Source: Nitrospinaceae bacterium
Lineage (GTDB): Bacteria > Nitrospinota > Nitrospinia > Nitrospinales > Nitrospinaceae
Reading direction: 5' to 3'
DNA length: 64,000 nt
Assembly (NCBI GenBank): GCA_965237905.1
Contig: OZ250172.1
Span: 960,001 to 1,024,000 of the forward strand
This document shows positions 1-50,142 of the stretch, in pieces. Below the pieces are notes generated by a model. That model worked only from the letters and a program-made list of their open reading frames with translations, had not been told where the DNA came from and made no database searches. The translations under genes were made by a program, and so were the position numbers. Numbering within the stretch: the first letter of the stretch is position 1; each line of letters opens with the position of its first letter.

Positions 1-3000
1 GTGAAATCCTCATCCTCCAGATCCAATAGGGCGTATACATCCTCATCCGGCTCCACATCGCCATTATCGATGTACCATTCATCATCATCACTGGTGGCTT
101 CGGATTCGCTGAACTCACCGGATTCCTCGTCAAAGACCAGCGCCAGAGTCTCCTCTGAGCCATCCTCCTCGTCCTCCGACTCGCCCGTCAAGCCCAACGT
201 CTCTTCCAGGAAGGCTGAACCTGCCGCAAAGAATGCACTGCTCAGAAGGGTATCTTCTCCCATATGCCGGTAGCTGGACTCTTCTCCCACATACCGGGAA
301 CCCGACTGCAGGGTATCGCTCATCACCGAGGTATCAGAAGTGGCATCGTCGTGATCCAGTCCCAGATAATGGCCTATCTCATGGCTGACCGCTGTCAGCA
401 GGTCCATCTTGCCATAAGCCGCGCTATTGGGCTTCGCCACCCAACCGTTACTGCTTAATAGGAACTCCTCATTGGCATCCGGTGTCTCATCGACAAACCA
501 GCCGTGACCCGCCGCGTTGGGATCGATAAAGATCCGGTTGCCGGAAGATCGGCCCAGGGCCAATCCGGCCATATCGGCAATGTAGAATTCCAGATCATCC
601 AAAGTCGCCAACCGGGCCTGATCAATATAACCAACCCCGGTCCACCGGGTAACCGCCGCGTCGAATATCTTCTCCAGCTGACCGTGCGTCAAGGTCGACG
701 TCGCCGTAGACTCACCCGCCGACTCAGCCGCCATCAAAGCCGCTTCCGGTACTTCGAACGCGCGGTCATCAGTCTTGACCCTGACGTCGTCGAAGTTGGC
801 GTTGCCACCTAATGCCATCAGGCCGAAGTGGCCGTCGACGGTCGAAGCATTAAACACGTGCCCGACTATCGCCTGGAAGCCGCCATTGCCGGCAGCGTTC
901 AGCGTTGCGCTCACCGTCGTACCCTTGAGCGTGAGGCCCAGCGTGTAGTCCGTATTTACCTCAATCAACGTGGTTACCGTTGCATCCTCGGCCCAGCCGG
1001 AATTCTTCGTGTAATGTCCGATGATCAGTTGATCAGTGGTTGCATCAATCGCCATATACTTGAAGCTTTCGTCACCGTAACGGTCGAAGATGAAGCCCGC
1101 CTGGTCGACCGTATTGACGGCAGCGCTCAACTCAAGATAGGAATTGAAATTGAGATTGTCCGGACCGAGATCCAGCAGGTTCATGCCGAGGCTCAAACCC
1201 GGGTCGACGGTGTAGCGTCCGCCAACAACATCCCAAGCCCCGATCATGCCCATGGTGAACAGATCGGGAACACCGTCTTCAAAATCTTCGGTGTCATCCA
1301 AAGTCACCTGTGGCGGTAAGATCTGCACGCGAACATTATCGAAACTGCCACGCGCGTTGTCGGAGCCCATACCGACCAGGCCCCAATTAAGGCCGTAGGA
1401 GTAGTCGTCGACGATACGCGGCGCATAGGTGTGCTGGAACACCTCTGTATTGTCGACCACCAGGGTGACGTTCACGCCGTTGATTGCGACCAGCATGTTA
1501 TACCACTTGTCGGGCCTGACGCCTCCCTGGACGACGCCTTGCTCATCGACATGCCAACCGCTCGCGTCGCGATGGCCCATGACCAGCTTGTTTATCTTGT
1601 CGTCGATCCCGACAAACTTGAAATCGGACTCGTTCTGGTAATCGAAAATCACATAGGCGTTAGCATCCCAGCCGCCTGTGGCTTTGTCAAATTTCACCGA
1701 AGCCTGCAATTCGAAGTATCCCGGCAGCTGGTCGCCGACGTGGAAAACCGCGACGGCGTCGCCGTCGAGCGACTCGGCCGCAACTTTCAGCTCGCCGCCG
1801 CTCACCTCGAACACACCGCTATCGACGAAGAAGCCTGTGCCGATGATCCCCTGGGTTCCATCGAAGCTCGCCGAGCGCAGCACGTCGCGAGGACCGCCGG
1901 GAATATTGCCAGGCTGCGGATCGTCCGGCGCGCCGGTCTGGTCTTGCCAGGCAAAGTCCTGCTGGCGTACAAGGCCCAGCTCGCCATCCGGCTCGCCATT
2001 GCGCGCCGGATCGCCGCCTCGCGTAAAGTCCGCGCCGTCGCTCTCCGACAAGGCGTAAAGGAACTCGGCCAGTTGTGGCTGCAGTGTGCGCGAGACCGTG
2101 CCCATGCCGAACGGCGCAAACGGCACGATATAGCTGTTAAACTCGCCCGCCCAGTCGATCAGCCGGTCGCCGCCGGTGTTGCCGATCAGCCGATCACGTC
2201 CGGCACCGCCATAAGCCCGATCCTCGTAAGTCGGGTGGGTGTCCGGAGCATCGTTCTGACCAACGCCTAGGATGGTGTTTGTGGTGTGATCGTCGTCGGC
2301 GTTGTGCAGGTCGTCACCCCAGCCACCGTACAGGTTGTCGCGCCCGGTGCCACCAACGATCCAGTCGTTGCCCAGATCGCCAAAGAGCTTGTCGTCGCCG
2401 TCGTCGTGTACTGGCCCGTATTCGATGCTTTGGTTTCCTCCGGTCGCGCCCGCTGGACGGAAAATCCCTTCCTCCTCGTTGAAGTTCAGGATGAACGGCG
2501 AGTTTGCTTCCAAGATGTACTGCCCGCCACCAGGCAGGTTGAAAACGACGTCCTGTCCGTCCTGCGCGCCGTAGAAGATCTCCAGACGCGGTTCGAACTC
2601 ATCGTACTCAGCGAATTCGCCCGTCACCATGCTGTAACGCAGCACGTCGCCCGGATTGAACGGCAGGTCGTAGTACTCGGGCAGTGCCTCGGCGCCCGAC
2701 ATCGCGTCGTCGCCCGAGCCGCCGTGCTGCCAGTCGCTTCCGAGACCGCCGTAGATAATGTCGTCAGCGTATTGAGGATCGGACAACTCATTGCCGCCCG
2801 CCACCGGGTTAAACGGCGTGAGGTCGACCGATTTCTTCAGCTCGCCGGTGACATGGATGTCGGCCTGCTGGACGTTGCCCGGCGTATCGATGTGCTCCTG
2901 GATCGTCGCCGCAATGCCGTAGAGCGGCTCCGCGGTGCCGTTGCGGCTGGTAAAGATGCGCCCGTCGTCGCCGAGCACGCCGTCGTCACCTGTGCCACCG

Positions 3001-15000: not shown

Positions 15001-18000
15001 TTCGCCAGGGAATTTATGTTGACGGTGGACTTGGCAAAACTGTTGCCACTGACGCCGGATATGCCTTCGACCAGGACCGAATCAATCGCCTCGACATTGA
15101 TCCGTGTCGCAACTTCCAGGACTCCGTTGGCTATGAGGTGGCTCCCTGTGCCGATATTGACCACCGCCTGAAACTTGTCCGCGCCGGTTCCAATATCGGT
15201 GGTACTGCTCAGGAAATCAATAGCGCCGCTTAATGCGGCCGTCTCGGATCGAAGGTTGCCGCCTTCAAACTTGTTCTTAGTCAGCTCGTTGATCGCGGTA
15301 ATTCGCAGAGAACCGGTATTGACAGTGACTCCGGTACCAATGTCGACGTTGGCTTTGCTCGTGACCTTGTTATCCGTAACGGCACCGGTTCCCGAACCCG
15401 CTGCGATCGTCACACTATCCGAACGAGAGTCGACGTCCTGCTCGTGAAAAGACGAAATCTCCAGGGCATCCGTATTCACCTGAACATCATTACCTATTTT
15501 CGCAACGGCCGCCAAGTCGCTGTCGATCCCGGAAAAACTGCCGGAAATCGCAACCACACCACCTTTGCCCGCGAAAGTATCCGCCTCCAGATCATCCCGG
15601 CTTATGGCGCCGATCTGAAGGAATCGGGCATCCACCACGGAACCTTGGCGTACGCTCGCCTCAACTCCATCTCCCCCGCCGAGGTTGATGTTAGCCACCA
15701 TAAACCCGGCCGCAAAGCCCCCGACAGCCACACCTTTTCCATCCGCCCGGGCCTTGGTGTCGAAGTCTGCCCTGACGAGGACGTCACGATTGACTGTGAC
15801 GCGTGAGAAATCGCCGATGAAGGCCTGAACATCGGGCCTCATGACCACAAAGCCAAAATTAATGGTCCCCGCTCCGACACCTCCGGCCAAGCCAAAAGCC
15901 TTGATCGTGGGATCGATATCCGAATCGGCCCGGATAACCACATCGTTAACGGCGTTGTCAAAAAGCTGCCCGATCTGAACACCGTTTCCGAGGAAGGCAT
16001 GGGTCGAGCCTGATACCGTAATCTTAACGTAGCTCGCTCCAATCGCAGCGAGACCACCCGCGATTTGAGCCGCATCGCCTTTGATCGTCCGGCTGTCCAG
16101 AGCTTCAATGGTCACCGTATCGGCAATATGGATCGCCCCGCCATCTCCGATAGATGCGAATTGGGAACTGTTGTCCTTGATGACAGTCACCGCGGCGCCC
16201 AGCCCGACATAGCCGAAGGCCCCAGCGAAGCCCAGCCCTTCAACATCATCTATTAATTGCGCACGGACCAGAACATCATCCCCGGCCATGACCTCGCCGG
16301 AAATCGAAGCAATGGTCGTACTCCGGACGTTCAGAACTACTATACCGGCACCAAAACCCACTATCCCGACGGCGAAGGCTCCCGCAACCACATCAACGGT
16401 CATTTTCTCGATGGCACGGACTTCAACATCGTCTAGAGCTACAATCATGGTACCCGAGCCGACGGTCGCGGAAACACCGGGTGGTGTGGCAACAACCTCG
16501 CCGATCTTGGCCTCCAGGTCTCCAGCTCCTGATCCATCCGCATTAAGTCTGGCAGAGGCATCGCCCATAGCGCTTACAGTTTGCGCCGGAGCCGTACTAC
16601 CGACATTCAAGGAATCCGCCAGTAAACTCGTCGCTCCTGCAGACTGACCATCGGCTTCGCCCTCGCCGGTATTAGAACCCTCTCCGGAACCATCACCCTC
16701 GCTTGCGCTCGCACTCTGCAGGACTTTATCGCCATTTCCGTCAGTTTCCTGGTTATTTTCGTAGGTCGAATCAAAGGCCGTTCCTATCGACCAGATGTTG
16801 ATAGAACCAGCCAGACCGACAATACCCAGGGCGCCACTGATTGACAGAGTATCCAGCTCCTTGATCGACAGCGCATTCACATCGACATCCACCGAGGCCA
16901 AAACTTCAGCATTCTCGCCAATCGACGCCGAAGTATCGTTTTTGATATTGCCCATGTCGATGCCCCCGGCCAACCCGGCCACACCCCCGGCCAGCGCGCC
17001 GGCAAAGGTCTCGACGCTTGTAAAATTGGTGGCGGAAACATTGACTCCCTGATCGGCACTGCCACCGATGTCTGTCGTGAACCGAACGATAGTTGGCGCG
17101 TCTTCCCCTATCGCGATTGTTTCGCTAACAAGCACTCCCGCGGATTCCAGCACAAGGGTTTGGCCGCCATCGGTGATATCAGCAATCTTGTGCGTGCCGG
17201 CATTGGGGGAGTTCTGGCCCGATACCGAGATGGTATCGCCAATTCTAAAGCCGTCGTTTTCCCAGCTTCCGGCATCCCGCGTGATCGTATCCGGACTGGT
17301 GTCGGTACTTTCAACAAACGTGAGGGTTTCGTCTGTCGACCGCACGAATGTCGGGGACGGGTCTGCAGTGACTCGGGTAATAACCGGCGCTTCTTCCCCA
17401 ACCGTGATCGTTTCGTTAAAGAGTTCTTGATCGATTTCCAGCACGAGGGTTTGGCCGCCATCGATGATATCAGCAATCGTGTACGTGCCAGAATTGGGGG
17501 AGACCTCACCATCGACCGAGATGGTATCGCCAATTGCAAAGCCATCGGTTTCCCAGCTTCCAATGCTTCGTGTGATCGTGTCCGGATTTATTAAGTTGCC
17601 GTCAACATCGGTTCCGGGATTCTCAGTAAACGTGAGGGTTTCGTTGGGCAACCGCTGGAATTTCGAGGACCGGTCTGTGTTGATGAGAGCCCGGTCGCCG
17701 ATGGAAGCCGTGGTGTCGGAATCGATGAGCGTGGTCAGCAGACCGCCGGCGAGTCCAAAGTAAAGACCCACGCCTCCCGCAACGGCGAGGGTGAACACGT
17801 CCTCGCTGGAATGAGCCTGAACCGCCACGCCATTCATGGTTTCGGTATCAAAGTTACTACCGGAAATATCCCCGGAGTAGATATCGGAGAAGCCGGTACC
17901 GTGACCATTGGCATTAATAATCGCATCGACGCCAATAAAAGCCTGGGTGTCTTTGGTGATGTTGACGGTTCCTACGGAACCGGCGGCACCAGCAGCCGCA

Positions 18001-27000: not shown

Positions 27001-30000
27001 GATACCGTGTTAATGGCAGAGATTTCCAGTGACCCATTGGCCGAAAGTGTTGTGGACTCATCGACATACGTAAGGGCATCACTTGTGAGAAATGAAAACG
27101 CGAATGTTGCGTTTAAACCCAGATCATTGTCTGACTCGTCTGCTTCGGCCAGCGCGCTTACGTCAACATTCGACGTAGACATTATTTTCAGATCTTCAGA
27201 ACTGGTGATGGAAGCACCACCGGTGATCACCTGAGCGCTGGATTGAGCGATGGCAAGAGCTACGGCAAATCCCGGAAACTTAAGCTCGAAACCAAGATCC
27301 TCAGTATCAACCGGCAGAAAATGCTCTGAAATACCGGTTACAGTCGAAATCGCACTGAGGGTGACATTGGCACCACTGATCGAGGCGCCGGAGCTGTCCA
27401 CACTCGCCGTTGACGTACCCAACAGAATCTGCTTGATGGTTTCATAGTTGAGAGTTACGGAACTTCCCGGGGCGAACGCTAATATGCTGGCCAGGAGCTC
27501 AACAATGTCTTTTTGGCTGATATCGATGCGTGAAGCGGCATTGATATTGACATCCCCAAAAGTAACAATGCTTGAGCCGGGGTCGAAAAGAATTGTTTCG
27601 GCGAAAAGGAAAAGATTTTTGTCTCCGAGATCGATGTCTCCGACAACCGTTAACTCATCGACACGTTCCCCTAAATCAACAATCACATCCAGTTCAGCGG
27701 GCAAGGCCAACAAATCGATGATTTTTTCATGGTCAGGGCCAAGGAATGTGGGGGCGCTTATTGTGAGGAAATTTTCGGTGACTATCCCAAAGCCGTCTTC
27801 GATAATCGTTTGCGACAAAGTGGCAATATCATCAGCGGGGAGAGAGAGTATATCGTTTAGAAATCGGTCTCTATCGGCTTCGACGGACAAATTGTAATAG
27901 TTCAGTCCATGGACGGCCCATACGGTGTCGCTGAACAACAAGAGCGAGTCGAGCGTGAACAAATTGAACTCACCGAAACCGACATCGATCAAAACGGCCA
28001 AGTCTTTGATGAAGCCGAATTTCTGACTACCCGCTATGGACGGATCAAACGTCAATTTGACAGCGCCGGACGTGGCGGTAAATACACCCAACACATCCAA
28101 ATTCAGTTGATCCATACTTAAATCAAGGATCTCGGTGTTAAAATCATACATCAAATCCACATCGGTGCCAAAGGCGGTCAAAAACGGCACGCCAGCCACA
28201 TCCACATTCAAATCCAATCGAGTAAAATTCATCTCAAAGACTGCCGTGCCAATATCATAGGAAGCCACAAAATCGGAGGCTGTGGCAGTGATCACCCCTA
28301 AAATATCCAGCGTTACCGGATCGGCCGTTAAGCCTAATTTTGTCGAGAAGGGACCGCCGGCCGTGTAATCGATACGTTCAGCAAACACGGTCAGATCCGT
28401 GAGAGTTAAAAACGAACCAAGGTTAAAAGTACCAAAATTTTTCTCGATTTTTCCAAGGGTAAACCCGTTGTTTCGAACGCTGAGCGATCTTTGGACCTGC
28501 TGTAGACCGGCCCCCGCTGCTATGATTTCCAAATCTGGTATAAAGCTAACGTCAAGGGTAGTATCAAAAGGCAACAAGGTGACGGATAGGTCCTCTACTA
28601 TTCCCAAAACCTCTTGTTCGGGAGGAGCATTCGAATCGTAGGTGATCACCACAGTGCTGGCATTGGCGGTCAATAGATTCTCGACTGTGAAATCGACCTT
28701 ATCGGCCGTCAGTCTCAAGATATTTGTATCTAAATCGAATGATCCGCTGATTGCGTTTCCATCTAAATCCGAGTCCGTTATGGATGCGGTGATCGTGTCA
28801 AAAATATTGATGGACGCACCTGCCGCGTTCAGTTCAATTATTTGATTTCCGGACTCAAGCTTAAAATCAACACGGGGTTTGTCTATTTTCAGGAAGTCGC
28901 CAACAACAATCTCGTCCAAGGTAACGGATCCGGTTGCGGTGAAGGTTGCGGGAGTATCGTCGAAGACATTATCGTCAGTAATAGCGATTGTTGCTGTGGC
29001 TTCAATTTCAGTATTCCCTATCTCACTCGTGGCCACAATGGGAAGAAGAATATCCAAGGCGCCGGTGACCGTCACCGCAACGTCGACGTCATCATTGATG
29101 ATATCCGTTATGGTCAGTCTCCCGTCTTCGGGAGTCAGGTCCGTGAGCGCGACACCGGCAGTAAAGTTAAATTGCGCCAGCGCATCCTTTATTCCCAGCT
29201 CTATAACATCCAAATCGGCCGAAAAATTTAAATTACCGGCACCCACCCGCGCATTAAGCTCGATGAAACCCACTTCGATAAACATATCGTCCAAGGTGAG
29301 CGGGTTCGCGTCGGGATCCTCAAAAAAATCATTTAAATCCAGCCTCAAGGACAATTGCGCATCCAGATTTACGGAAAGGCCAAGATCAACCTTATTATCC
29401 GAGGAATCCATGAATGGGAGGAGGCCGGACAGGTCCAGCTGGTAATCTATGTTTTTACCCAGCGAAAAGTTAATATCGAACTCAACGATGTTTGATGTGG
29501 TCAACCCGCCGGACACCGTTATCCCGATGTTTGAGAGCCCCTCCTCGGCATCGGCCCACAACCTGGTAATGTAATCTTCTATTGTCTGGTTTATGCCAAA
29601 ATACGTTGGGTTTTCGTCGAACGACACTACCCGATCGAAGTAAGCCAGAATAGGTTGGCCAAATTGCAGAAAATCCCCAAGGTCAGGGCCGGGAGAGTTG
29701 TGCACAAACCCGTTTAGTGTCCCGAGTCTTCCCTTAAGTCCGCCAATGGCTTTATTTACAACGGGGTTTCCGGTGATCGTTCGCGAAACAATACCTAACT
29801 CATTGGCACCTTGCTGAATAACCTCTTTGGCAGCGGCCGGAAGCTCTACAGGTTTACTGGGCGCCCCGATTTCTATTTGGTAAAACGTTGTAAAAGCCTC
29901 ATCAACCTGGGCAATACCAGGGAATTGTTTGTTAAATTCATCAACGATGCGTTGATAGGCAATTTTGATGCGTACAACGGACGCTACGGGTTGTTGGTTG

Positions 30001-33000
30001 GGGTCGGTAACGGGCACTTTGGATTGGTTGGCAAAAGCCAATAGTTCAGCCAATACTTGTTTTTCGGCGTCATTCAGCGGACCGGTGGCAGCTTGGATCG
30101 CTGCCACGTCGTTAATTTGAATATCCACGTCCATCCCGGATTTATGTTCTCTATCGCCAGGGTCATGGTTAGGAAAGTCGTCTTTGGGGTCATTAGGGTC
30201 GTCGACGGTGTGCCCATTTTCGCTGATGGCCAGGATGGTCTGGGTTTCCAGAACGCTGGCCGTTGCCGTTTTAATCAGGTCAATCAACCAGCTAGTACCA
30301 TAACGTAATTTGGTCGGCGTAGTCCCATCACTCTCTACGGCAATGGCGAAATTGCCTTTACCGTCATCCACCAACTCCGTCCAACGGGGAGCATTGGCCG
30401 CGTTCAGCCACGCATGCGTGAGCAAGGTCCGGTCCACCCTGCCGTCTTCAGTCGCCGGATCTCCGGCGTCTGTTCCTGTCTGCACGTCATGGATCGCGGA
30501 CTGAAACAGTTTAATGGCCTCAATGGTTTTGGGTCCCACAACTCCATCCACTGCGAGCGGATTCCCATCTGCGTCCGGATACCCAAGATAGGCCAACCGT
30601 TGCTGGACCTGAAACACGTTCAAAACGAAATCCGTTCCGTTGGCACCGACACTATCCAGCTCATCCGGTAGATGATCTTCCATTTTAATTTCATTGAAAC
30701 CATCTGAAATATCAATGGCTATCGTCTGTGTCTCGTCATCAACCACCACGTTTAATAATGTGGTTAATCCTTTGAAATCGGTTTGCAGTGCTGTGACATC
30801 CGGAACAAAATACAGTTTACCGGAATCCTGAAACCAATCCTTCACTCCGACCAATTTTTCAAAGTCAACCAGAAAGGATTCGCTTGTGGTTAGAGACGCG
30901 ATCTCAGATGCATACGCATTGCCGCCAAGTCTGGCAACAGCGTGCAAGATACGCATGGTGGACTCAAGCTCTTCCAAGGTCAAAGTACCCGTATCGCCAT
31001 CAAAATTCTCAAAAATACCGTCTCTTGCAACGATTGCTGAATCGATCATATCTGTTGTTGATTCATCGGCCACATCCTGCCAAAAAACGCTGTCGTAACT
31101 GAGGCTGGCCCGGGCCGTTGCTTCCCAATCCGGTCCGCGTCCCATTAATTCCCCAAAGAAGATCCGGCCGCCGGGTACCGCAACCGGAGTTGTTGTATCT
31201 CCTGTAATGACGTCAAACGTTGCACCTGGGTAAACTTTCGAAAGATCCAACTCGATCACATCACCGACTTTCCCCTCATCAAACAAAGGGATAAATCGCA
31301 CATTGTCGATTGTTACGCTGGCAGCAATGCCATCTGCTTCGTTGACAACCGTATTTGGATCGTCAGCCCTATCCGTAAGCTCAAAAGTAAGATTATGCAC
31401 TTTGTTGAGCAGATCCTCGGGGATCAACACAAACTTCCCAGTCAGCCCATCATTGCTGGCGAGAGACAAATCAATTTCCGCAACGATATTTTTTCGTCCG
31501 AAGGAGTCCAGGCTTACCTTCAACAGATCAGTCGTCGGGTCTCCAAGCAAGTGCATATCGAAGGCAAGCATAACGTTGTCCGGAAAATACATCCAGTTAT
31601 GGGTGCGGTCTACATGTCCAGGGGTAAACTCTCCATCGGACAATAGAACAGAATGATCCGCCGGCGTTAAAATATCTCCTTCACCACCCCCGCCATAATG
31701 GGACCAGCCAGGTTGTTGAAAACCGTCCTCGTTGGAATTTGTAGGAGTTTCAGGGTTGAAATGCTGAAAATCGCCATTGACGATCTCAAAGGGAGTCCAG
31801 GACGGTTTCCACTTGGCTTTGGCAAGCCCATCTTTTGTCAGCGTTGAGAGATCGAAGTTTGCTATATCTGCGGTATCGATGCCTGCGATACCCGCGATGT
31901 TGGCTACGCCGGCGGCATCCGATATAAAACGCGGGGTATGCCCGTGATCTTGATTGGGAGGAGGAGGAAGAAGAGGAGGAGAGGGAGGAGGAGGATCAAA
32001 GAAATTATCCATTGGTGGCCTGTCTGCTTTACCTCCGGCCAATCGGCTTAACTGATAACCCTTTCCAGCAAAGTAAGTGCTGGCAGATTGAGTTACTCCA
32101 TTAACAACTTCAACAAAATCCAATGGAGCTTCAAACTCTTCATCCGAGGTGCTGGAGTCTCTATCCGTATCGCCCTCGAAATCACCGTCATTAAACGTCA
32201 GTCTGTCAGGGGCTATAGAACCCAGGTAATATCCGTTCCATGTCCAACTATGGTCCGAACCAGAGTCCGGCAATTCCCCGCCAGGGCCAGCATCCAGCCA
32301 TACGTTATAGGCTCCGGGAATGGGCCTACCCAAAGGATCAAAAACATCAGGTATTACGCTGCCGACTCGCTGTCCTCTGGTTTCATAATAAACATCGGCA
32401 AAATTGACGTTATCCCAGATCGTTACCCCATACCCACCTTCAGTTCCAGCAGGGTCTTGCGGCAGGCCCAGGTCGAATTGTCTTGTAGCTGCATCAATGG
32501 TGTCAGTAAACTCTTGCTCAAAGTCATGGGGATCCATGAAAGTGGCATGATCCACCTGAATGTCGTAAAAGGCTAGACGCTCGATAACCTCACTGTTAAC
32601 CGCGGCTCCGAAACTGTGGGCGATAAAATGCAGAGGAACTGTATTTCCTTTTTTACCGGTAGTAGGATCGATGATACCGAAGTTAACCAGTTGACTGAAC
32701 AAGGCATCAGCCGCGGTCTCTGCAAAACCTGGTGCTGCCTCATTAGACGCGCCAGCCCAGTCCCAAAGCAGAATCAGCTCACCCTTGGACGGGTCAGCCA
32801 GTGTGGGCAATGCTGAATCCTCAGGATCAAACCAAGCAATCCCATCGTCGCCATCAGGTATATCGAGATCAATCAACCAGCTTTGCCCCGGCAGGCCGTG
32901 GATGGCCTGAGCTATCGGAAGAAGCGAGTCCCCATCCGAGCCGAGCACTTGAAAGCCATGGGTGACAATCGTGACTCCGCTGAATTCGATCTTCAGTGCT

Positions 33001-33029: not shown

Positions 33030-36000
33030 CCAATTGCTCAACTGAATCTACGTCGAACCATGAGGGTGCGCTAGCCGCAACCACGCTGGGAAGTTCACCG
33101 GTAATCAAGGTGTCTGTGCCAAAACCACCATTGACGGTTAAGTTATTTATATCAAAAGTCGGATCAATACTTTCAATGACGATGGTGTCGTCCCCGAAGC
33201 CAGCATTAATGACTAAATTGTGGGTAGCAAATGTGATCTCTTCGAAGCTTTTAGTATCACTTCCAATGGTCATCATTCCCGGAGTTTCATGATTCAAAAG
33301 GCGGATATGATCATCCTTAATAAGGAGTTTTCCTGAAAATGTTATCGTATCGGTTGGAGTACCCGAAAGCGTAATGGGTTCCATTCCGGTGAATGTCAAA
33401 AGCATACCGTCAAGAAGCATGGTTCCGGAATCTGGCCCTAAAGCGTCGTAAGCAACCTCGCTATAACTTCCACTAAAAATAATACTGTCAAACCCTCCGT
33501 CACCGCCTGCCACGACTCCGCTGAGACTGCCTGTAGCGGTGAACGTGAACGTATCCTCATTGTCGGCCGCGCCGGTCAGGTTTTCGATGCCGCTGAAGAA
33601 CGTCACTCCGGCCACGTTCCCGGAGTCGGCGCCATCGATCGTCCAGTCGGTATCGGCCGCGGGACCGGACAACGTGTCACTGCCTGCGCCGCCAACAACC
33701 GTTTCAGCCTCTTTGACAGTAAGATCGATAAACACACCGGAAATTGTGGCGCTGTAATCCAACACATCCGATCCGGCGTTACCGAAAATTGTGCCCGCAA
33801 TATCCGCTCCCTCACTAAACGTGAAGCTGTCGGCATCGGCACCGCCCTGCAGATTCTCAATGCCGGAGAAACTGGTGCCGCCCATCGTACCGGAGTTGAG
33901 GCCCGTGATGTTCCAGCTATTCGCCGTATCGGCACCGGCTAACGTGTCACTGCCACCGCCACCTGTTACTGAGTCCACCGCACTACCGGTACTGAACGTA
34001 AAACTGTCGGCACCTGCGCCGCCACCCAGATTCTCGATGCTGGAGAAACTCACGCCACCCACGGTACCTGTGCTCACTCCCGTGATGTTCCAGGCATTCG
34101 CACCATCGGCACCGGTTAAGGTATCGTTACCGCTGCCACCGATCACGTTGACGATATTGGCTACCGTACCGGTCACACCCGTTGCTGTATTCGTATTCAG
34201 ATCGACGTTGATGCCGGTGGTGTTCGCTGAATGATCGAGCCGGGAGGTGCCCGCGCCGGTGATCGATCCGGTGACCGCCGCGCCGTCCGCAAACACGTAA
34301 GTGTTGGTCGTATTTCCGCCGACGAGGTGTTCAACACCGGTAAATATTTCGCTGTTAAGGGTCCCGGCATCCAGCCCGGTGATATTCCAGATATTGTCGA
34401 TGTCCTCCGCCAGTAGGGTATCGATACCCAGGCCGCCGATAATACTGTCCACACCTGCTTCGCCGATCAGCGTGTCGTCACCCCCGCCGCCGGAAAGCGC
34501 GTCATTGCTGGCCCCACCAATCAGCAGGTTGGCCCCGCCATCACCGGTCAAGATGTCCGCACCTGCGCTACCGGTCACGTCCTCGAAGCCACCAATCCCG
34601 CCCGTGCCGCTTGCGGTTCCAACAGACAGATCCACCGAAACACCCGTCAGCCAAGCACTGTAATCCAGCGTATCACTACCGAGCCCGGCAGAAATCACGC
34701 CACCGATACCCGCACCTTCGGCAAATGCAAAAAGATCGCTCAACACGCCGCCTGTAAGGTTTTCAATTTCACTGAATGCGATGCCTGCAAGATCACCTGC
34801 ATTCGCTCCGGTAATGCTCCAGGTATTTGCGCTGTCGGAACCGATCAGCGTGTCACTGCCTACACCGCCACCCGCCACCGAATCCACCGAACTCAGAGCA
34901 GCGAACGTAAAACTGTCGGCACCCGTGCCGCCTGCGAGATTCTCGATGTTGGAGAAACTAGTGCTGCCAACCGTACCCGTATTGACACCCGTGATGCTCC
35001 AGGCATTGGCACTGTCGGCACCGGTCAAGGTGTCGTTACCCGCACCACCGATGACGCTCACGACATTGGCTACCGTACCCGTCACACCGGTTGCCGTATT
35101 CGTATTGAGATTGACACTGATGCCGGTGGTGTTTGCAGAATGATCGAGCACGTTGCTGCCGCCGGTGATGTTACCGGCAATCGATGCGCCGTCTTCAAAG
35201 GTGTAGGTATTGGTTCCGGTACCACCCACAATGTTCTCGGAACCGGCGATGTTGCTCACCGTATCAACGCCGTCAGAAACACTCAGTGTCCCGTCAGCTT
35301 GCACCGTGATATTTAAGTTGGAGGTGATGTTGGAGAAGTCGAGTGTATCCGTGCCGGCGCCCGTGTCGAGCAACACTGCACTCAACGCACCGACGATCGT
35401 ATCGTTACCCGCTCCGGTAACGACATCCTCAATATCAGAGATCGTACCCGCATAACTCGCCGTGCCGGCACTGAGATTAACCGTCACACCCGTCGTGTCT
35501 GAGGATAGATCAAGCGTGTCACTACCATCGCCACCGGTTACTGAATCCACTGAACTTAAAGCAGCGAACGTAAAACTGTCGGCTCCCGTGCCGCCTGCGA
35601 GATTCTCGATACCACTGAAACTGACTCCACTCACACTGCCCGCATTGACGCCCGTGATGTTCCACGCATTGGCACTGTCGGCACCGGTTAACGTGTCGGA
35701 GCCTGTGCCGCCAATCACGTTGACGATATTGGAAACCGTACCGGTCACGCCCGTTGCCGTATTCGTATTGAGGTTGACACTGATACCGGTGGTGTTGGCG
35801 GAATAATCGAGCACATTACTGCCACCGGTGATATTACCGGTGATGGAGGCGCCGTCTTCGAAGATATACGTATTCGTCCCCGTACCACCGACGATGTTCT
35901 CAGCACCGGCGATGTTGTTGACGGTATCCACACCATCGGTCACGCTGGTCGTACCATCAACATGCACCGTGATATTTAAATTGGAAGCAACATTCGAGAA

Positions 36001-38040
36001 GTCGAGCGTATCCGTGCCGGCACCCGTATCCAACAACACCGCGCTCAACGTACCGATGATGGTATCGTTACCCGCACCGGTCACCACATTTTCGATATCA
36101 GAGATCGTACCCGCATAACTGGCCGTGCCGGTACTGAGATCCACCGTCACACCCGTCGTGTCTGAGGACAGATCGAGGGTGTCACTGCCACCGCCACCCG
36201 CTACGGAGTCCACCGAACTCAGGGCGGCGAACGTAAAACTATCACTGTCTGTGCCGCCTGCGAGATTTTCGATACCACTGAAACTGACTCCACTCACACT
36301 GCCCGCATTGACGCCCGTGATGTTCCAGGTATTCGCTGTATCCGCACCCGTCAGGGTGTCGTTGCCCGTGCCGCCGATGACGTTCACCACGCTGGAAGCA
36401 CCACCCGTGCCCGTCGCGGTATTGGTATTTAGATTGATGGAGACATTCGTCGTGTAGGCTGAGTAGTTCAGAATGTTACTGCCGCCGGTGATGTTACCGG
36501 CGATCGATGCGCCATCTTCGAAGGTGTAGGTGTTCGTACCGGTACCGCCGACGATGTTCTCGGCACCGGCGATGTTATTAACCGAATCCACGCCATCGGT
36601 CACGCTCAGCGTCCCACCCGCATGCACTGTGATATTTAAATTGGAAGCAACATTCGAGAAGTCGAGCGTATCCGTGCCGGCGCCCGTGTCGAGCAACACT
36701 GCACTCAACGCACCGACGATCGTATCGTTACCCGCACCGGTGACAACATCCTCGATACCCGAGATCGCACCGGCATAACTCGCCGTGCCGAGACTCAGAT
36801 CCACCGTCACACCGGCCGTGTCGGAGGACAGATCGAGGGTATCCGATCCGGCATTGCCCGCTACGGAATCCACCGAACTCAGGGCGGCGAACGTGAAACT
36901 GTCGGCATCGATACCACCCGCGAGATTCTCGATACCACTGAAACTGACTCCACTCACACTGCCCGCATTGACGCCCGTGATGTTCCAGGTATTCGCTGTA
37001 TCCGCACCCGTCAGGGTGTCGTTGCCCGCGCCGCCGATGACGTTGACGATATTGGACACCGTACCCGTTACGCCGGTTGTTGTATTCGTATTGAGATTGA
37101 CACTGATGCCGGTGGTGTTTGCAGAATGATCGAGCACATTACTGCCGCCCGTGATCGACCCATTCAGAACCGCACCGTCTTCAAAGGTATAGGTATTGGT
37201 ACCGGTACCGCCGACCACGTTCTCGGCACCGGCGATGTTACTCACCGTATCGACACCATCGGTCACGCTGGTCGTACCATCCGCAGGCACTGTGATATTT
37301 AAATTGGAGAGAACGTTCGAGAAGTCGAGCGTATCCGTGCCGGCGCCCGTGTCGAGCAACACTGCACTCAACGCACCGACGATCGTATCGTTACCCGCAC
37401 CGGTGACAACATCCTCGATACCCGAGATCGCACCGGCATAACTCGCCGTGCCGAGACTCAGATCCACCGTCACACCCGATGTGTCGGAAGACAAATCGAG
37501 GGTATCCGATCCGGCATTGCCCGCTACGGAATCCACCGAACTCAGGGCGGCGAACGTGAAACTGTCGGCGCCCGTGCCGCCGGCGAGATTCTCGATACCA
37601 GAGAAACTGGTGCTGCCCACCGTACCCGCATTGACACCCGTGATGCTCCAGGCATTCGCCGCATCGGCACCCGTCAACGTGTCATTGCCACTGCCGCCGA
37701 TCACGTTGACAACGCCAGAAGCACCGGAAGTTCCGGAAGTTCCGGTGGCTGCGCCAGTTTGCAGGTCCACATTCACCGCAGTGGTGTAGGCCGAGTAATC
37801 AAGTACATTACTGCCACCGGTGATGGTACCGGCGATCGATGCGCCATCTTCGAAGGTATACGTGTTCGTGCCTGTACCGCCGACGATGTTCTCGGCGCCG
37901 GCGATGTTATTAACCGAATCGACGCCATCGGTCACGCTGGTTGTACCGTCAGCGTGTACCGTAATATTTAAATTGGAGGTGACATTCGAGAAGTCCAGCG
38001 TATCCGTGCCGGCACCCGTGTCGAGTAGAACCGCACTCAA
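33019..38040 (-). CDS. Giant exoprotein, middle segment: ~220-aa Gly/Thr/Asp-rich RTX-like repeats
   Basis: 1673-aa ORF with GGxGxD motifs. It begins mid-repeat (SAVLLDTGAGTDTLDFSN) as the continuation of the upstream ORF after a 2-bp shift, so the listed start is probably not a real start. Confidence 0.85.
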   Translation of the reverse strand: MSAVLLDTGAGTDTLDFSNVTSNLNITVHADGTTSVTDGVDSVNNIAGAENIVGGTGTNTYTFEDGASIAGTITGGSNVLDYSAYTTAVNVDLQTGAATGTSGTSGASGVVNVIGGSGNDTLTGADAANAWSITGVNAGTVGSTSFSGIENLAGGTGADSFTFAALSSVDSVAGNAGSDTLDLSSDTSGVTVDLSLGTASYAGAISGIEDVVTGAGNDTIVGALSAVLLDTGAGTDTLDFSNVLSNLNITVPADGTTSVTDGVDTVSNIAGAENVVGGTGTNTYTFEDGAVLNGSITGGSNVLDHSANTTGISVNLNTNTTTGVTGTVSNIVNVIGGAGNDTLTGADTANTWNITGVNAGSVSGVSFSGIENLAGGIDADSFTFAALSSVDSVAGNAGSDTLDLSSDTAGVTVDLSLGTASYAGAISGIEDVVTGAGNDTIVGALSAVLLDTGAGTDTLDFSNVASNLNITVHAGGTLSVTDGVDSVNNIAGAENIVGGTGTNTYTFEDGASIAGNITGGSNILNYSAYTTNVSINLNTNTATGTGGASSVVNVIGGTGNDTLTGADTANTWNITGVNAGSVSGVSFSGIENLAGGTDSDSFTFAALSSVDSVAGGGGSDTLDLSSDTTGVTVDLSTGTASYAGTISDIENVVTGAGNDTIIGTLSAVLLDTGAGTDTLDFSNVASNLNITVHVDGTTSVTDGVDTVNNIAGAENIVGGTGTNTYIFEDGASITGNITGGSNVLDYSANTTGISVNLNTNTATGVTGTVSNIVNVIGGTGSDTLTGADSANAWNITGVNAGSVSGVSFSGIENLAGGTGADSFTFAALSSVDSVTGGDGSDTLDLSSDTTGVTVNLSAGTASYAGTISDIEDVVTGAGNDTIVGALSAVLLDTGAGTDTLDFSNITSNLNITVQADGTLSVSDGVDTVSNIAGSENIVGGTGTNTYTFEDGASIAGNITGGSNVLDHSANTTGISVNLNTNTATGVTGTVANVVSVIGGAGNDTLTGADSANAWSITGVNTGTVGSTSFSNIENLAGGTGADSFTFAALSSVDSVAGGGVGSDTLIGSDSANTWSITGANAGDLAGIAFSEIENLTGGVLSDLFAFAEGAGIGGVISAGLGSDTLDYSAWLTGVSVDLSVGTASGTGGIGGFEDVTGSAGADILTGDGGANLLIGGASNDALSGGGGDDTLIGEAGVDSIIGGLGIDTLLAEDIDNIWNITGLDAGTLNSEIFTGVEHLVGGNTTNTYVFADGAAVTGSITGAGTSRLDHSANTTGINVDLNTNTATGVTGTVANIVNVIGGSGNDTLTGADGANAWNITGVSTGTVGGVSFSSIENLGGGAGADSFTFSTGSAVDSVTGGGGSDTLAGADTANSWNITGLNSGTMGGTSFSGIENLQGGADADSFTFSEGADIAGTIFGNAGSDVLDYSATISGVFIDLTVKEAETVVGGAGSDTLSGPAADTDWTIDGADSGNVAGVTFFSGIENLTGAADNEDTFTFTATGSLSGVVAGGDGGFDSIIFSGSYSEVAYDALGPDSGTMLLDGMLLTFTGMEPITLSGTPTDTITFSGKLLIKDDHIRLLNHETPGMMTIGSDTKSFEEITFATHNLVINAGFGDDTIVIESIDPTFDINNLTVNGGFGTDTLITGELPSVVAASAPSWFDVDSVEQLDAS

Positions 38041-40150
38041 CGCTCCGATGATCGTGTCGTTACCGGAGAACCGGTGACGACATCCTCGATATCAGAGATC
38101 GCACCGGCATAACTCGCCGTGCCGGTACTGAGATCAACCGTCACACCCGTTGTATCAGAGGACAGGTTAAGCGTATCCGATCCGGCATTGCCCGCTACGG
38201 AATCCACCGAACTTAAAGCAGCGAACGTAAAGCTGTCGGCGCCGGTGCCGCCTGCGAGATTCTCGACACCACTGAAACTTGTGCCGCCCACGCTACCGGA
38301 GTTCAGTCCCGTAACGTTCCAGGTGTTCGCACTGTCGGCACCCGTCAACGTGTCGTTGCCTGCACCACCGATCACGTTGACGATATTGGACACCGTACCC
38401 GTTACGCCGGTTGTTGTATTCGTATTGAGATTGACACTGATGCCGGTGGTGTTCTGGGAATGATCCAGCACATTACTGCCACCGGTGATGTTACCGGCAA
38501 GCGATGCCCCATTCTCGAAGGTGTAGGTGTTGGTGCCTGTACCGCCGACCACGTTCTCGGCGCCGGCGATGTTATTAACCGAATCGACGCCATCGGTCAC
38601 GCTGGTCGTACTATCAGAATGAACCGTGATATCTAAATTGGAAGCAACATTCGAGAAGTCGAGCGTATCCGTGCCGGCACCCGTATCCAACAACACCGCG
38701 CTCAACGCACCGATGATGGTATCGTTACCCGCACCGGTGACTACATTCTCGATATCAGAAATCGTGCCCGCATAACTGGCCGTACCGGCACTGAGATCAA
38801 CCGTCACACCCGTCGTGTCTGAGGATAGATCAAGCGTGTCACTACCATCGCCACCGGTTACTGAATCCACCGAACTTAAAGCGGCGAACGTAAAACTGTC
38901 GGCACCCGTGCCACCCGCAAGATTCTCGATACCAGAGAAACTGGTGCTGCCCACCGTACCCGTATTGACACCCGTGATGCTCCAGGCATTGGCATTGTCC
39001 GCACCCGTCAAGGTGTCGTTACCTGTGCCGCCGATTACGTTCACCACGCTGGAAGCGCCACCCGTGCCCATCGCGGTATTGGTATTTAGATTGATGGAGA
39101 CATTCGTCGTGTAGGCTGAGTAGTTCAGAATGTTACTGCCGCCGGTGATGTTACCGGCGATCGATGCGCCATCTTCGAAGGTATACGTGTTCGTGCCTGT
39201 ACCGCCGATGATGTTCTCGGCACCGGCGATGTTGTTGACGGTATCCACACCATCGGTCACGCTGGTCGTACCATCAACATGCACCGTGATATTTAAATTG
39301 GAAGCAACATTCGAGAAGTCGAGGGTATCCGTGCCGGCACCCGTATCGAGCAGAACCGCACTCAACGCTCCGATGATCGTATCGTTACCCGCACCGGTAA
39401 CAACATCCTCGATACCCGAGATCGCACCGGCATAACTGGCCGTGCCGAGACTCAGATCCACCGTCACACCCGATGTGTCGGAAGACAAATCGAGGGTATC
39501 CGATCCGGCATTGCCCGCTACGGAATCCACCGAACTCAGGGCGGCGAACGTGAAACTGTCGGCGCCCGTGCCGCCTGCGAGATTTTCGACACCACTGAAA
39601 CTGGTGCCGCCCACACTGCCAGTGTTTGTTCCCGTGACGTTCCAGGTGTTCGCACTGTCGGCACCGGTTAACGTGTCGGAGCCTGCACCACCGATCACGT
39701 TCACCACGCTGGAAGCGCCACCCGTGCCCGTCGCGGTATTGGTATTTAGATTGATGGAGACATTCGTCGTGTACGCCGCGTAGCTCAGAACATTACTGCC
39801 GCCGGTAATGGTACCGGTGATGGACGCGCCATCTTCGAAGGTATAGGTATTGGTAGCGGTACCGCCGATGATGTTCTCGGCTCCGGCAATGTTATTAACC
39901 GAATCAACGCCATCGGTCACGCTCAGCGTCCCGGCGGCATGCACCGTGATATTTAAATTGGAGAGAACGTTCGAGAAGTCGAGCGTATCCGTGCCGGCAC
40001 CCGTGTCGAGCAGAACCGCGCTTAACGCACCGATGATCGTGTCGTTCCCGGCGGAACTGATCACATTCTCAATGCTGCTGATGCCACCGGTGCCGGTTGC
40101 GGTACCATTGGAAAGATCGATGGTGACACCGGCAGAGGTTTCACTGTAGT
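34900..40150 (-). repeat. Eight tandem ~660-bp (~220-aa) repeat units
   Basis: LSAVLLDTGAGTDTLDFSN recurs at about 40020, 39360, 38700, 38040, 37370, 36710, 36050 and 35385. Confidence 0.9.
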
Positions 40151-42476
40151 CGAGGGTGTCTGATCCTGCGCCGCCGGTGAGCGTGCCACTGATGGAACCC
40201 AGCGCTTCGAGGATGAAGTCGTCGGCATCACTGCCGCCCTCGATGTTCTCAATCCCGCTGAAGTCGCGGTCGTTCAGTTTGCCGCTGTTACTGCCCTTGA
40301 TGCGCCAGGTATTCTGTTGGTTGGCTCCCCGTACCCGGTCCAGTCCCGGACCGCCGGTAAAATGTCCCGAGATGAAGCCCGCGACCGCGAACAGAAACTC
40401 GTCTTCGTTCGTTCCCCCCACCAGACTTTCGATATCGTAAAACGGCAGAGCGTTCAATGTACCGCTGTCACCCGCGTCCACCGTCCACGTATTGAGTCCG
40501 TCCGCGCCAAACAGCTCATCGAACCCAAGACCGCCTGACAATGTTCCGGTCAAACCGCCGCCTACTTGCACCACAAACGTGTCGGCAACCGAACCGCCTT
40601 CCAGATTCTCAATGTCGCTAAAATCCGTGCTGCCCACCGAACCCGTATCGAGACCGGAGAGTGTCCATACATTCGAGGCATCCAAACCGCGCAGGGTGTC
40701 CGCACCCGAGCTGCCCGTCACCTTGTTGATACCGGTGAAGTTGCTCAGTCCCGTGGCTGAGCCGGTTTCCAGGTTGACCGCAACCCCCGCCACCTGCGAC
40801 GAGTAATCCAGGGTATTGATGCCGCCCGCGCCGTCGATGGTGCCGCTGATACTGCCGCCATTCAGGAAGCGGAACAGGTCATCTCCGGCACCGCCGGTGA
40901 GGTTTTCGATATCCACAAACACCAGCGTGTTCAGCGTTCCCTGATCGGCTCCGGTAATCTCCCACACATTGTCGCTGTCGGAGGCGATCAGCGTGTCATT
41001 GCCCGCACCGCCCGAGATCGATCCGGTCAATCCACCGGTCAGAGTCAGCTGGAAGGTGTCATCGAGGGCACCGCCTTCAAGGTGTTCCATTCCGGTGAAC
41101 GTCGTACCGCTCACATTACCGGCACCTGATCCGTCAATGATCCACGTGTTCGTGCTGTCCGCACCTGTCAGGGTATCCGTACCCAGACCACCGGTAACAC
41201 TCTCAATGCCACTAAATCCAGCCGTATCCGAGGCCGCAGCCGTTCCCAGGTTGACGTTCACACCCGTCGTTCTTGTGCTGTAGTCTAATGTGTCTGTGCC
41301 ACCGCCGCCGGTTACCGTACCAATCGACGCACCATCGGCTAACGCGAAGGTGTCATCAAGCGCACCGCCTTCCAGATTTTCCAAACCACTGAAAGAAACG
41401 CCACCGACCACACCGGTATGGGTTCCGGTGAGATTCCATATGTTCGCGTCATCCGCACCCGTCAGGGTATCCGTACCCAGTCCACCGGTAATACTTTCAA
41501 TATCCGCAAAGCCGCCGGTATCCGAAGCTGTAGCCGTTCCCAGGTTGACGTTCACGCCGGTCGTGCGCGTAGCGTAATCCAGTTCATCGGCCCCGCCGCC
41601 GCCGGTGACCGTACCGGTAATCCCCGCGCCATCGTCAAAACTGAAGATGTCCGCCGAGTTCCCCCCGATCAGGTTCTCCACTTCACTGAACGCGACGCCA
41701 TCGACATTCCCCTGATTGCCGGCTGAGATCCGCCAGGCGTTGGCCTTATCCGCACCCCGTACCGTGTCACTGCCCAAACCACCTGCCAGAGAATCCGTGC
41801 CACTGCCGCCGAACAACACATCGTGGCCTCCGCCACCGATGAGGACATCATCTCCCGAACCACCGATCAGTGTGTCATGGCCCCCGGCTCCCTCAAGCCT
41901 CACATTACCGCTGAACCCTGACGCATCCAGGATGTTATCCCCTGCACCACCGGTCAGACGCGCCGCATCGAATCCCGATACCGTATAACCCAGACCGTTC
42001 ACCGTCAGCTGGGTACTCGTCAGGTTCATATCGCTGTCCGATAACACCGACAGCGTATCCGTGCCCAATCCCGTAAAGTTGATGTTTTTGCCACCCAGCA
42101 GTGTCGCCCAATCCAGGCCCAGCGTGTCGTCTCCGGCACTGCCGTCGATATCAATCACACCATCGCCGCCATCGACGGTACCGGCCGTGATCTGACTGAC
42201 CACATTGCTGAGGTCGTCGATCAGTTGGTATTCGCTGGCAAGGGAATCATATTGCAGGGTGAGATCGGTCGCGGCGCCGAACGATAAATCCGCCGCCAAC
42301 AGAACGCGCGGTTCCAGAGTTTCCAATACATGTTGGTTGGCGGGAGGCTTGCGATAACCGCCGGTGGTCCCCTTGGAGGAACGGCGGATAAAAGGAAGTT
42401 TGCTTAAAAAAGAAGGAACGTAGCCTTCAGCGGCAGGTGGTGTGCGGGTGTCAAATTGCGCGAACGGATAGGCCAC
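38037..42476 (-). CDS. Giant exoprotein, N-terminal segment with LEPR-XLL motif and RTX-like repeats
   Basis: LETLEPRVLLAAD near the N-terminus; many GGxGxD repeats; GTG start preceded by GGGGGA; the last residues (SPVTTRSSER) are out-of-frame repeat sequence. Confidence 0.88.
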   Translation of the reverse strand: MAYPFAQFDTRTPPAAEGYVPSFLSKLPFIRRSSKGTTGGYRKPPANQHVLETLEPRVLLAADLSFGAATDLTLQYDSLASEYQLIDDLSNVVSQITAGTVDGGDGVIDIDGSAGDDTLGLDWATLLGGKNINFTGLGTDTLSVLSDSDMNLTSTQLTVNGLGYTVSGFDAARLTGGAGDNILDASGFSGNVRLEGAGGHDTLIGGSGDDVLIGGGGHDVLFGGSGTDSLAGGLGSDTVRGADKANAWRISAGNQGNVDGVAFSEVENLIGGNSADIFSFDDGAGITGTVTGGGGADELDYATRTTGVNVNLGTATASDTGGFADIESITGGLGTDTLTGADDANIWNLTGTHTGVVGGVSFSGLENLEGGALDDTFALADGASIGTVTGGGGTDTLDYSTRTTGVNVNLGTAAASDTAGFSGIESVTGGLGTDTLTGADSTNTWIIDGSGAGNVSGTTFTGMEHLEGGALDDTFQLTLTGGLTGSISGGAGNDTLIASDSDNVWEITGADQGTLNTLVFVDIENLTGGAGDDLFRFLNGGSISGTIDGAGGINTLDYSSQVAGVAVNLETGSATGLSNFTGINKVTGSSGADTLRGLDASNVWTLSGLDTGSVGSTDFSDIENLEGGSVADTFVVQVGGGLTGTLSGGLGFDELFGADGLNTWTVDAGDSGTLNALPFYDIESLVGGTNEDEFLFAVAGFISGHFTGGPGLDRVRGANQQNTWRIKGSNSGKLNDRDFSGIENIEGGSDADDFILEALGSISGTLTGGAGSDTLDYSETSAGVTIDLSNGTATGTGGISSIENVISSAGNDTIIGALSAVLLDTGAGTDTLDFSNVLSNLNITVHAAGTLSVTDGVDSVNNIAGAENIIGGTATNTYTFEDGASITGTITGGSNVLSYAAYTTNVSINLNTNTATGTGGASSVVNVIGGAGSDTLTGADSANTWNVTGTNTGSVGGTSFSGVENLAGGTGADSFTFAALSSVDSVAGNAGSDTLDLSSDTSGVTVDLSLGTASYAGAISGIEDVVTGAGNDTIIGALSAVLLDTGAGTDTLDFSNVASNLNITVHVDGTTSVTDGVDTVNNIAGAENIIGGTGTNTYTFEDGASIAGNITGGSNILNYSAYTTNVSINLNTNTAMGTGGASSVVNVIGGTGNDTLTGADNANAWSITGVNTGTVGSTSFSGIENLAGGTGADSFTFAALSSVDSVTGGDGSDTLDLSSDTTGVTVDLSAGTASYAGTISDIENVVTGAGNDTIIGALSAVLLDTGAGTDTLDFSNVASNLDITVHSDSTTSVTDGVDSVNNIAGAENVVGGTGTNTYTFENGASLAGNITGGSNVLDHSQNTTGISVNLNTNTTTGVTGTVSNIVNVIGGAGNDTLTGADSANTWNVTGLNSGSVGGTSFSGVENLAGGTGADSFTFAALSSVDSVAGNAGSDTLNLSSDTTGVTVDLSTGTASYAGAISDIEDVVTGSPVTTRSSER

Positions 42477-42885: not shown

Positions 42886-42912
42886 AAAAAAAATCCCCGC
42901 CGAAGCGGGGAT
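42886..42912 (-). terminator. Rho-independent terminator after DUF3467
   Basis: ATCCCCGC-4-nt loop-GCGGGGAT hairpin followed by a T-run on the minus strand. Confidence 0.8.
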
Positions 42913-42965: not shown

Positions 42966-43325
42966 TTATTTGGTGTCGCCTTCCAGCTTCAAGGCTCCAA
43001 AACGGTTTTCATATTCCTTGATAATTCGGGATAACAACACCAGCAAACGTTTCGCTGCATAAGGATTCAATACCATGCGATCCGACAGCTGGATGGACAA
43101 TTGTTTATCTTCCGAAATATTCCACGACTGGTTGGTGCCAAAGAAAATGGAAACCTCTTCCCGGGTGCTCGACGCATTCACCACGTTAGCGTAAGTGGTC
43201 TGCATCTTCGAATCATCCCAGTTGAGTGTCAGGGACTTCAGAAGATCATTGGTTGCGTTATCTGCTTTTGTGGATTGCGTTTCAGTTTTTTGTGCTTCTG
43301 CGACTGGAGTCTTTTGCTCTGCCAT
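42966..43325 (-). CDS. DUF3467 family protein
   Basis: TYANVVNASSTREEVSIFFG...LNPYAAKRL...EYENRFG pattern; AGGAGG RBS. Confidence 0.8.
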   Translation of the reverse strand: MAEQKTPVAEAQKTETQSTKADNATNDLLKSLTLNWDDSKMQTTYANVVNASSTREEVSIFFGTNQSWNISEDKQLSIQLSDRMVLNPYAAKRLLVLLSRIIKEYENRFGALKLEGDTK

Positions 43326-50121: not shown

Positions 50122-50142
50122 ATTTTGAAAGTTAGCGATTTC

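Follow-up and report, generated by a model that had tools for sequence, protein, structure and literature searches.

An ancestral LEPR-XLL giant gene of a Nitrospinaceae bacterium, probably inactivated recently by two small insertions

The closest described counterparts of the gene reported here are Cag_663 and Cag_665 of Chlorobium chlorochromatii, which, as far as the available passages of their description go (10.64898/2026.03.19.712371), share with it an N-terminal LEPRxLL motif, a length above 14,000 amino acids (aa), calcium-binding repeats, the lack of a classical signal and, in Cag_665, LktA-like repeats; both have been observed at the protein level and localised to the partner cell, and Cag_665 is exported. 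The accessible part of a second study, by Kamneva, Poudel and Ward (2015; PMC4452313), places GAF-HlyD, M50-HlyD, a short SecA_DEAD protein and HlyD/biotin-lipoyl proteins in a single operon that lacks an ABC transporter, a SecA_DEAD locus that resembles the one beside the paralogue of our gene. The gene itself lies in a 64,000-nucleotide (nt) stretch of Nitrospinaceae DNA, hereafter the window (G000:C1:960,001-1,024,000), G000 being a single-contig genome of 3.09 Mb. The EF-Tu of G000 belongs to a 90% cluster in which the members with names are Nitrospinota, Nitrospinaceae or Nitrospina, and its NxrA-like protein clusters with Nitrospina sequences, so the host is read as a Nitrospinaceae nitrite oxidiser. 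On balance, we favour an account in which the ancestral gene encoded a LEPR-XLL giant of 14,184 residues, likely an exported, adhesin-like contact filament, that was probably inactivated recently by two insertions.

The giant gene occupies the minus strand from window position 42,476 to 81 bp past the left edge (42,558 bp). The initial annotation had taken it for a single coding message from 42476 to the edge; what we found is three frames of 1,479, 1,690 and 11,042 codons separated by two breaks, over which an ancestral reading of 14,184 codons is now spread once three extra bases are discounted. The pieces, the breaks and the repeat stalk that they interrupt are as follows.

38037..42476, minus strand: piece 1, 1,479 aa, with a GTG start, the LEPR-XLL leader, RTX-type repeats and the first stalk units
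38065..38069 (about 38,067), minus strand: break 1, two extra bases within one stalk unit
33019..38091, minus strand: piece 2, 1,690 codons stop to stop, with the remaining stalk and a linker domain
33018..33021 (about 33,020), minus strand: break 2, one base too many between the linker and the hydrolase
1..33047, minus strand: piece 3, 11,042 codons stop to stop, the stop lying 81 bp left of the window at genome position 959,919
42267..42326, minus strand: LEPR-XLL motif, residues 51-70 (NF012209, 31.4 bits against a cut-off of 17)
34830..40060, minus strand: stalk of eight glycine-rich units of 220-223 aa, across pieces 1 and 2

That these are one ancestral gene for a LEPR-XLL giant, now in three frames, follows from three lines of evidence. 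All nine full-length alignments with sister copies of the stalk unit (six from the same gene, three from its paralogue B) show a 2-nt gap at break 1; the homologue P0002 passes from stalk into hydrolase within a single frame; and among homologous loci, a LEPR-like motif lies upstream in 49 of the 62 hydrolase frames whose 5' end is closed. The anchors of successive stalk units are spaced by 660, 660, 665, 669, 663, 660 and 663 nt, and the 665 nt at break 1 is the only spacing not divisible by three. Piece 2 matches P0002 at 74% over 583 aa; at break 2, residue 582 of P0002 corresponds to the end of piece 2 and residue 584 to the restart in piece 3, with four bases occupying the place of one P0002 codon. 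Much of the earlier description holds for this ancestral gene. A LEPR-XLL exoprotein of about 14,100 aa had been proposed, in agreement with the 14,184 codons and the NF012209 match over its cut-off; the claim that 1-33,029 holds no in-frame stop was borne out, the minus frame being open from 33,047 to the edge and closing 81 bp beyond; and the gene is indeed invisible in the open reading frame (ORF) track, for the sole reason that its frame continues past the window edge.

Break 2 is present in the DNA of the sample sequenced in runs X1 and X2, because the contigs of both runs each span 27,000-34,200 unbroken, with 0 differences and 0 gaps, at depths of 144 and 157. Both runs come from a single sample, which is probably the one assembled, and its library type is not recorded. 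For a control, the congener G001 supplied 257 ORFs, taken from 359 kb, which yielded 190 real-frame orthologues (222 kb), two of them frame-split in G000 or in G001; the two giants together hold three breaks in 73 kb, against at most two in the 222 kb of these 190 ordinary orthologues (0.66 expected; Poisson P about 0.03). We regard it as very improbable that the gene is intact in living cells and that its breaks are assembly errors: the letter-for-letter match to break 2 at both depths and the nearly break-free ordinary genes of the assembly speak against it, while in its favour are the position of break 1 in an array of 80-90% identical repeats and the related long contig encoding P0002, P0044, P0117 and P0232, which gives the gene in short pieces, like error-prone assemblies. 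For break 1 alone, an assembly error is a real, if minority, possibility. Several further points weigh against inactivation. Break 1 sits in a long repeat and is seen in the assembled sequence; X1 and X2 are one sample, the probable source, and their support comes from contigs, which lose rare variants; and the excess of breaks in the giants is modest, repeats being prone to draw assembly errors. Two other runs, X3 and X4, in which a relative of about 90% identity is present as a small share and in pieces, have joints near 33,016-33,019 with an unresolved middle and so give no verdict on break 2. Their 32 listed substitutions in piece 3 (17 at first, 6 at second and 9 at third positions) show no third-position bias, and being a filtered subset they were not used.

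Weighing these points, we consider it quite likely that two small insertions inactivated the giant gene and that, because of the two frameshifts, this strain probably no longer makes the filament in full. If the gene is dead, its death is recent, because the stop-free frames cap the number of neutral substitutions: 2.2% of single-base changes would create a stop and none is present in frame, which limits such changes to fewer than about 133. No intact close relative turned up in two metagenome scans; one distant stalk-bearing contig was seen.

The same undecayed coding sequence would suit breaks that act as switches, by ribosomal slippage or reversible indels that leave a minority of full-length protein, or by translation of piece 3 alone from the ATG at 33,029. 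Piece 2 does end in Ser-stop, the following frame being open at +1, and the stop overlaps an in-frame ATG. However, long simple repeats are lacking at both break sites, the full-length product would depend on two independent shifts, P0002 reads through without a stop, and piece 3 alone would lack a leader, with no clear ribosome-binding site before 33,029; we judge such a switch improbable. Under the inactivation that we prefer, translation in the present strain would stop after 1,479 residues and leave a stub consisting of the leader and part of the stalk.

Downstream of the stalk, profile scans (Pfam, 32 of 36 tiles; NCBIfam, 32 tiles), alignments and structure models recover the following parts.

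32013..33020, minus strand: alpha/beta-hydrolase, lipase-like, with candidate residues Ser145, Asp172 and His266 of piece 3
31956..31994, minus strand: poly-proline linker, not in homologue P0002
31293..31781, minus strand: conserved module after the hydrolase, in a 31-row alignment
30495..30620, minus strand: PG_binding_1 domain, 28.8-29.8 bits against a cut-off of 23
29850..30370, minus strand: MepA-fold domain, with H-x6-D kept (30,123-30,149) and H-x-x-H-x-H replaced (29,877-29,894)
16053..26957, minus strand: LktA-like 53-aa tandem repeats, 29 NF012206 (LktA_tand_53) matches, tiles up to 132 bits against a cut-off of 50
2184..7319, minus strand: RTX-type region, 11 nonapeptides, PF00353 over its cut-off in several tiles
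1308..1865, minus strand: weak lectin-like domain, three sub-threshold ConA-type Pfam matches, best E 1.8e-4
258..737, minus strand: small metzincin-type domain, HExxHxxGxxH at 351-383 and a Met-turn candidate at 309-326
1..200, minus strand: acidic tail, D+E 29% in the last 130 aa

The module order given by the initial annotation therefore held for the LEPR-XLL motif, stalk, hydrolase, poly-proline linker, peptidoglycan (PG)-binding and MepA-like domains, solenoid repeats, RTX region, metzincin and acidic tail. Its beta-sandwich stands as a conserved module (the 31-row alignment), with no Pfam match and a best PDB match of only E 0.21, and a carbohydrate-binding sandwich is a guess; its lectin-like domain keeps the three sub-threshold matches and has no PDB match; and its Calx-like part found no support, with no Calx-beta profile match in the tiles or in a 4-row alignment.

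Three enzyme-like modules had also been proposed, and all three folds or motifs are there, with the active site lost in one. The hydrolase model (predicted local distance difference test, pLDDT, 81) resembles 3ds8 (Z 14.4, root-mean-square deviation (rmsd) 3.6 over 212 residues) and pancreatic lipase-related protein 2 (Z 13.9), with weak similarity to Tle1 and phospholipases. Across 173 homologous copies, the putative triad is kept as Ser in 145 of 164, Asp in 163 of 164 and His in 141 of 149 copies that cover the respective site; Gly replaces the catalytic Ser in 18 of 164 copies, and some giants hold several hydrolase copies, as in P0041 with 11 matched stretches. The PG-binding and MepA-like domains were modelled together (pLDDT 82) and resemble MepA 1tzp (Z 11.8, rmsd 3.4 over 152 residues; Foldseek E 3e-4). 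Where all four stand-alone homologues have H-x-x-H-x-H, the present domain reads F-T-T-F-Y-Q and the close relative P0117 reads F-T-T-S-Y-Q, and there is no His between residues 969 and 1115 of ORF3 (piece 3). The lost histidines correspond to the third zinc ligand and both catalytic histidines of MepA, the base among them, and because these three C-terminal histidines are gone the MepA-like domain is predicted to be inactive. Most giant-embedded copies have also lost H-x-x-H-x-H: a regular-expression search found H-x-H in 2 of 23 such copies from the loci, a third was seen off register, and P0043 and P0101 keep the full site. The metzincin matches PF00413 (Peptidase_M10) at 28.3 bits against a cut-off of 24 and karilysin at E 3e-5, with an Atlas value of 0.95 for a matrixin cluster, and its motif is kept in the homologues that reach it. 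Two plausible enzymes thus remain, not three: the lipase-like domain and the metzincin. Alignment A5 comprises 20 of the 27 rows of alignment A4.

Although absent from all 40 relatives searched, the hydrolase occurs commonly in large proteins from Planctomycetota, Verrucomicrobiota and further phyla. A frame was obtained at 66 of 76 hydrolase loci, 35 of these frames being at least 2,000 aa long, and because a PG/MepA match comes after the hydrolase in 19 of 49 proteins and in 15 of 42 frames long enough, lipase, PG-binding and MepA-like domains form a recurring cassette, one that has no Pfam name. We infer from this distribution a modular, horizontal acquisition.

The initial annotation had suggested contact-dependent attack, for which we found no support, and a three-enzyme contact weapon against neighbouring bacteria strikes us as most unlikely. 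Its attractions are the weak likeness of the lipase fold to Tle1 and phospholipases, the PG-binding domain, the metzincin motif, and the full MepA site kept by the giant-embedded copies in P0043 and P0101. Against these stand the destroyed MepA site of the present gene, the absence of any small immunity-type gene flanking it, a host that is a nitrite oxidiser, modules that are routine in large planctomycete proteins, and the intact giant of the relative G013, which lacks the lectin and metzincin parts.

The giant protein that we reconstruct is likely exported to the cell surface, because Cys is absent from all three pieces, no clear membrane helix is present and RTX repeats occur. All 29 NF012206 matches fall in the giant gene, and the LktA-like region is likely a beta-solenoid filament. 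For RTX pore-forming toxins or the Fusobacterium leukotoxin, the whole-protein model NF033943 reached at most 43 of 1,000 bits in 25 tiles, on the nonapeptides only. The C-terminal part of the RTX region is common to paralogue B and the intact G013 giant, and the last 70 aa of the tail resemble the end of that giant (32% over 71 aa, pairwise E 1.6e-4), so that the idea that family giants conserve the N-terminus alone was dropped. A search for a general C-terminal motif found a similar end in 1 of 34 other giants compared, many of them partial.

As for the route of export, type I secretion system (T1SS) genes had been expected past the left edge, where we found a convergent two-component pair, exosortase T and a sortase-target-like gene. 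No canonical T1SS was found beside the giant gene, and genome-wide searches with two models stayed under cut-off (TIGR01843, best 45 of 208.65 bits; TIGR03375, best 341.5 of 693.1). OEP genes exist in the genome, none of them beside either giant. The likely exporter is instead an ABC-less short-SecA module beside paralogue B, a second LEPR-XLL gene 1.4 Mb away (G000:2,363,989-2,394,763) that is itself split, into 8,033 and 2,271 codons, with both halves mapping contiguously onto the intact G013 protein. Paralogue B matches our gene (gene A) without a difference for the first 2,652 bp and at 98% identity for the last 821 bp, the middle being different; after it come DUF3467, GAF-HlyD, M50-HlyD, the short SecA_DEAD protein and MFP, with the complete module at G000:2,395,597-2,402,467. 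Among the 40 relatives, M50-HlyD occurs in 5, DUF3467 in 6 and LEPR in 4, and all five module-positive relatives have DUF3467. G013 and G017 carry intact LEPR giants of 6,047 and 6,051 aa between DUF3467 and the module, and G019 has a split giant; G005 has DUF3467 and M50-HlyD on short contigs and no LEPR match; and G020, a single contig, has DUF3467 followed by a 268-aa LEPR stub (L122:16594-17400) and no M50-HlyD match.

This assignment of the exporter has to be set against several observations. The co-occurrence of giants and module is suggestive only, since the relatives are kin and not independent; a module gene lies within 10 kb in just 3 of 76 hydrolase loci, in windows shorter than the genes; the secondary SecA_DEAD module is, in the available text of PMC4452313, a computational prediction; and the Chlorobium paper, in its available passages, proposes TolC/SapC/HlyD for its giants (10.64898/2026.03.19.712371). 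Two side observations concern the relatives themselves. In G008, the giant-gene ends found at contig ends (L126, L119, L128) are two 3' and one 5', with G000-like flanks, and belong to two giants whose bodies are missing from the assembly; and G013 holds a stand-alone LEPR-XLL ORF of 715 codons (L123:9958-12105), in which only the motif is similar to the giants.

The two giant genes are inverted relative to each other (G000:C1:1,002,476 and 2,363,989), both pointing away from an origin near 1,733,000, which is the GC-skew minimum (a dnaA-like ORF lies at 1,723,044); they are 731 and 631 kb distant from it, a near-symmetry that we estimate to arise by chance roughly once in eight cases. Recombination between the shared 2,652 bp would exchange the upstream regions of the giants. 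In two congeners (L125, G001:C20; L127, G003:C116), the sensor-kinase gene found 3' of gene A is joined to DNA whose G000 counterpart lies near gene B (2,331,408; 2,404,113), and this adjacency suggests inversions or other rearrangements that break at the giant-gene loci. A more elaborate proposal, which we think rather unlikely, is that chromosome inversion exchanges the promoters of the paralogues and so switches the payload, the frameshifts adding a second off state, and that in nitrite oxidisers the giants are exported by an ABC-less machine of SecA, M50 and HlyD proteins, contact partner cells and carry the widespread unnamed cassette of lipase, sandwich, PG binder and MepA pseudo-enzyme.

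For the intact protein, we envisage export in trans by the ABC-less module and one of the genome's TolC-type channels, after which the calcium of seawater would let it fold as a long filament of repeats. The lectin-like and PG-binding parts would grip polysaccharide or cell-wall material, the dead MepA fold may serve as a binder, and the lipase-like and metzincin domains could trim acyl esters and proteins wherever contact is made. In this picture the Ser-Asp-His triad is assigned from sequence and fold, and expression and enzyme activity are predictions. Alternatively, the intact protein might have acted on a partner as a symbiosis factor passed over at contact, which is what has been reported of Cag_663 and Cag_665, and not as a plain adhesin. 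Its leader and LktA-like repeats are the same as in the Cag proteins, which the available part of the Chlorobium paper localises in the partner cell, and loss caused by the absence of a partner would suit two broken paralogues. Yet no partner is evident from the present data, the haemagglutinin motifs and adjacent TolC/SapC of the Cag system were not found at the giant locus, and most relatives lack the gene (hydrolase in 0 of 40); a symbiosis factor is accordingly a possibility that we hold to be unlikely, and the adhesin-like filament is the reading that we carry forward.

Upstream of the giant gene, the locus has two further features.

42966..43325, minus strand: DUF3467 gene, 119 aa (PF11950, E 8e-20)
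42893..42912, minus strand: terminator-like hairpin after DUF3467

Three relatives of genus g4 have DUF3467 in the same position. A promoter of its own is probable for the giant gene, given a sigma70-like site at 42,599-42,627; this is a consensus match only, and weak evidence in that four promoter-like sites were found against 3.2 in shuffles. Rfam and transfer-RNA scans of the window gave no match. Beyond the left edge, exosortase T adjoins the sortase-target-like gene (L001:11009-14694) about 4 kb past the giant's end on the opposite strand, with no evident link to it. On the other side, the window encodes a 279-aa protein (43,696-44,535) and a 1,378-aa membrane-type protein (45,679-49,815), both with no Pfam or NCBIfam match, the latter not found in any of five congeners searched. 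Positions 50,125-64,000 form a low-GC island (about 0.40-0.48) with a tyrosine-recombinase-like gene, a 387-aa ORF with no NCBIfam match, and type I restriction-modification genes, whose specificity gene is apparently in two ORFs (57,984-59,278) with a 343-aa ORF between them.

The two giant genes make up about 2.4% of the 3.09-Mb genome of a chemolithotroph, a share that suggests some importance of attachment or partner contact to these nitrite oxidisers. Giant genes also fall into assembly gaps, as the three giant-gene ends at contig ends in G008 illustrate. Relatives with intact giants of about 6,000 aa beside the module, together with one that has lost both, offer a natural test of the export module proposed in 2015, and the lipase/PG/MepA cassette could be expressed as small domains.

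The giant gene differs from the Cag giants, as described in the available passages, by its 220-aa repeat stalk, lipase/PG/MepA cassette, metzincin tail, frameshifts, nitrite-oxidiser host and lack of adjacent TolC/SapC. In contrast to the locus of Kamneva and colleagues, for which the paper's accessible passages name no substrate, the module lies 1.4 Mb from the giant gene, with DUF3467 alone adjacent. The giant RTX adhesins LapA and MpIBP, which are exported by type I secretion, share the RTX nonapeptides, an acidic Cys-free stalk and ligand-binding-type domains near the C-terminus; our giant differs in having no T1SS ABC or HlyD over cut-off in two models, and in its LEPR leader and enzyme modules. 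With Fusobacterium LktA-type filamentous proteins it has the structural repeat alone in common (NF012206, 29 matches over 11 kb) and nothing that would point to toxin function, and with MepA and peptidase M74 (LAS) it shares the fold and H-x6-D, without the third zinc ligand and both catalytic histidines. Omnitrophota giants, membrane-rich and with fused SecA domains, are of a different type, and the available text on them mentions neither LEPR nor Nitrospin- (10.1101/2023.11.21.568195). A literature search covering few subscription journals returned nothing on LEPR giants of Nitrospinaceae. The giant gene is thus a new, broken member of an already known and poorly studied class, that of the LEPR-XLL proteins.

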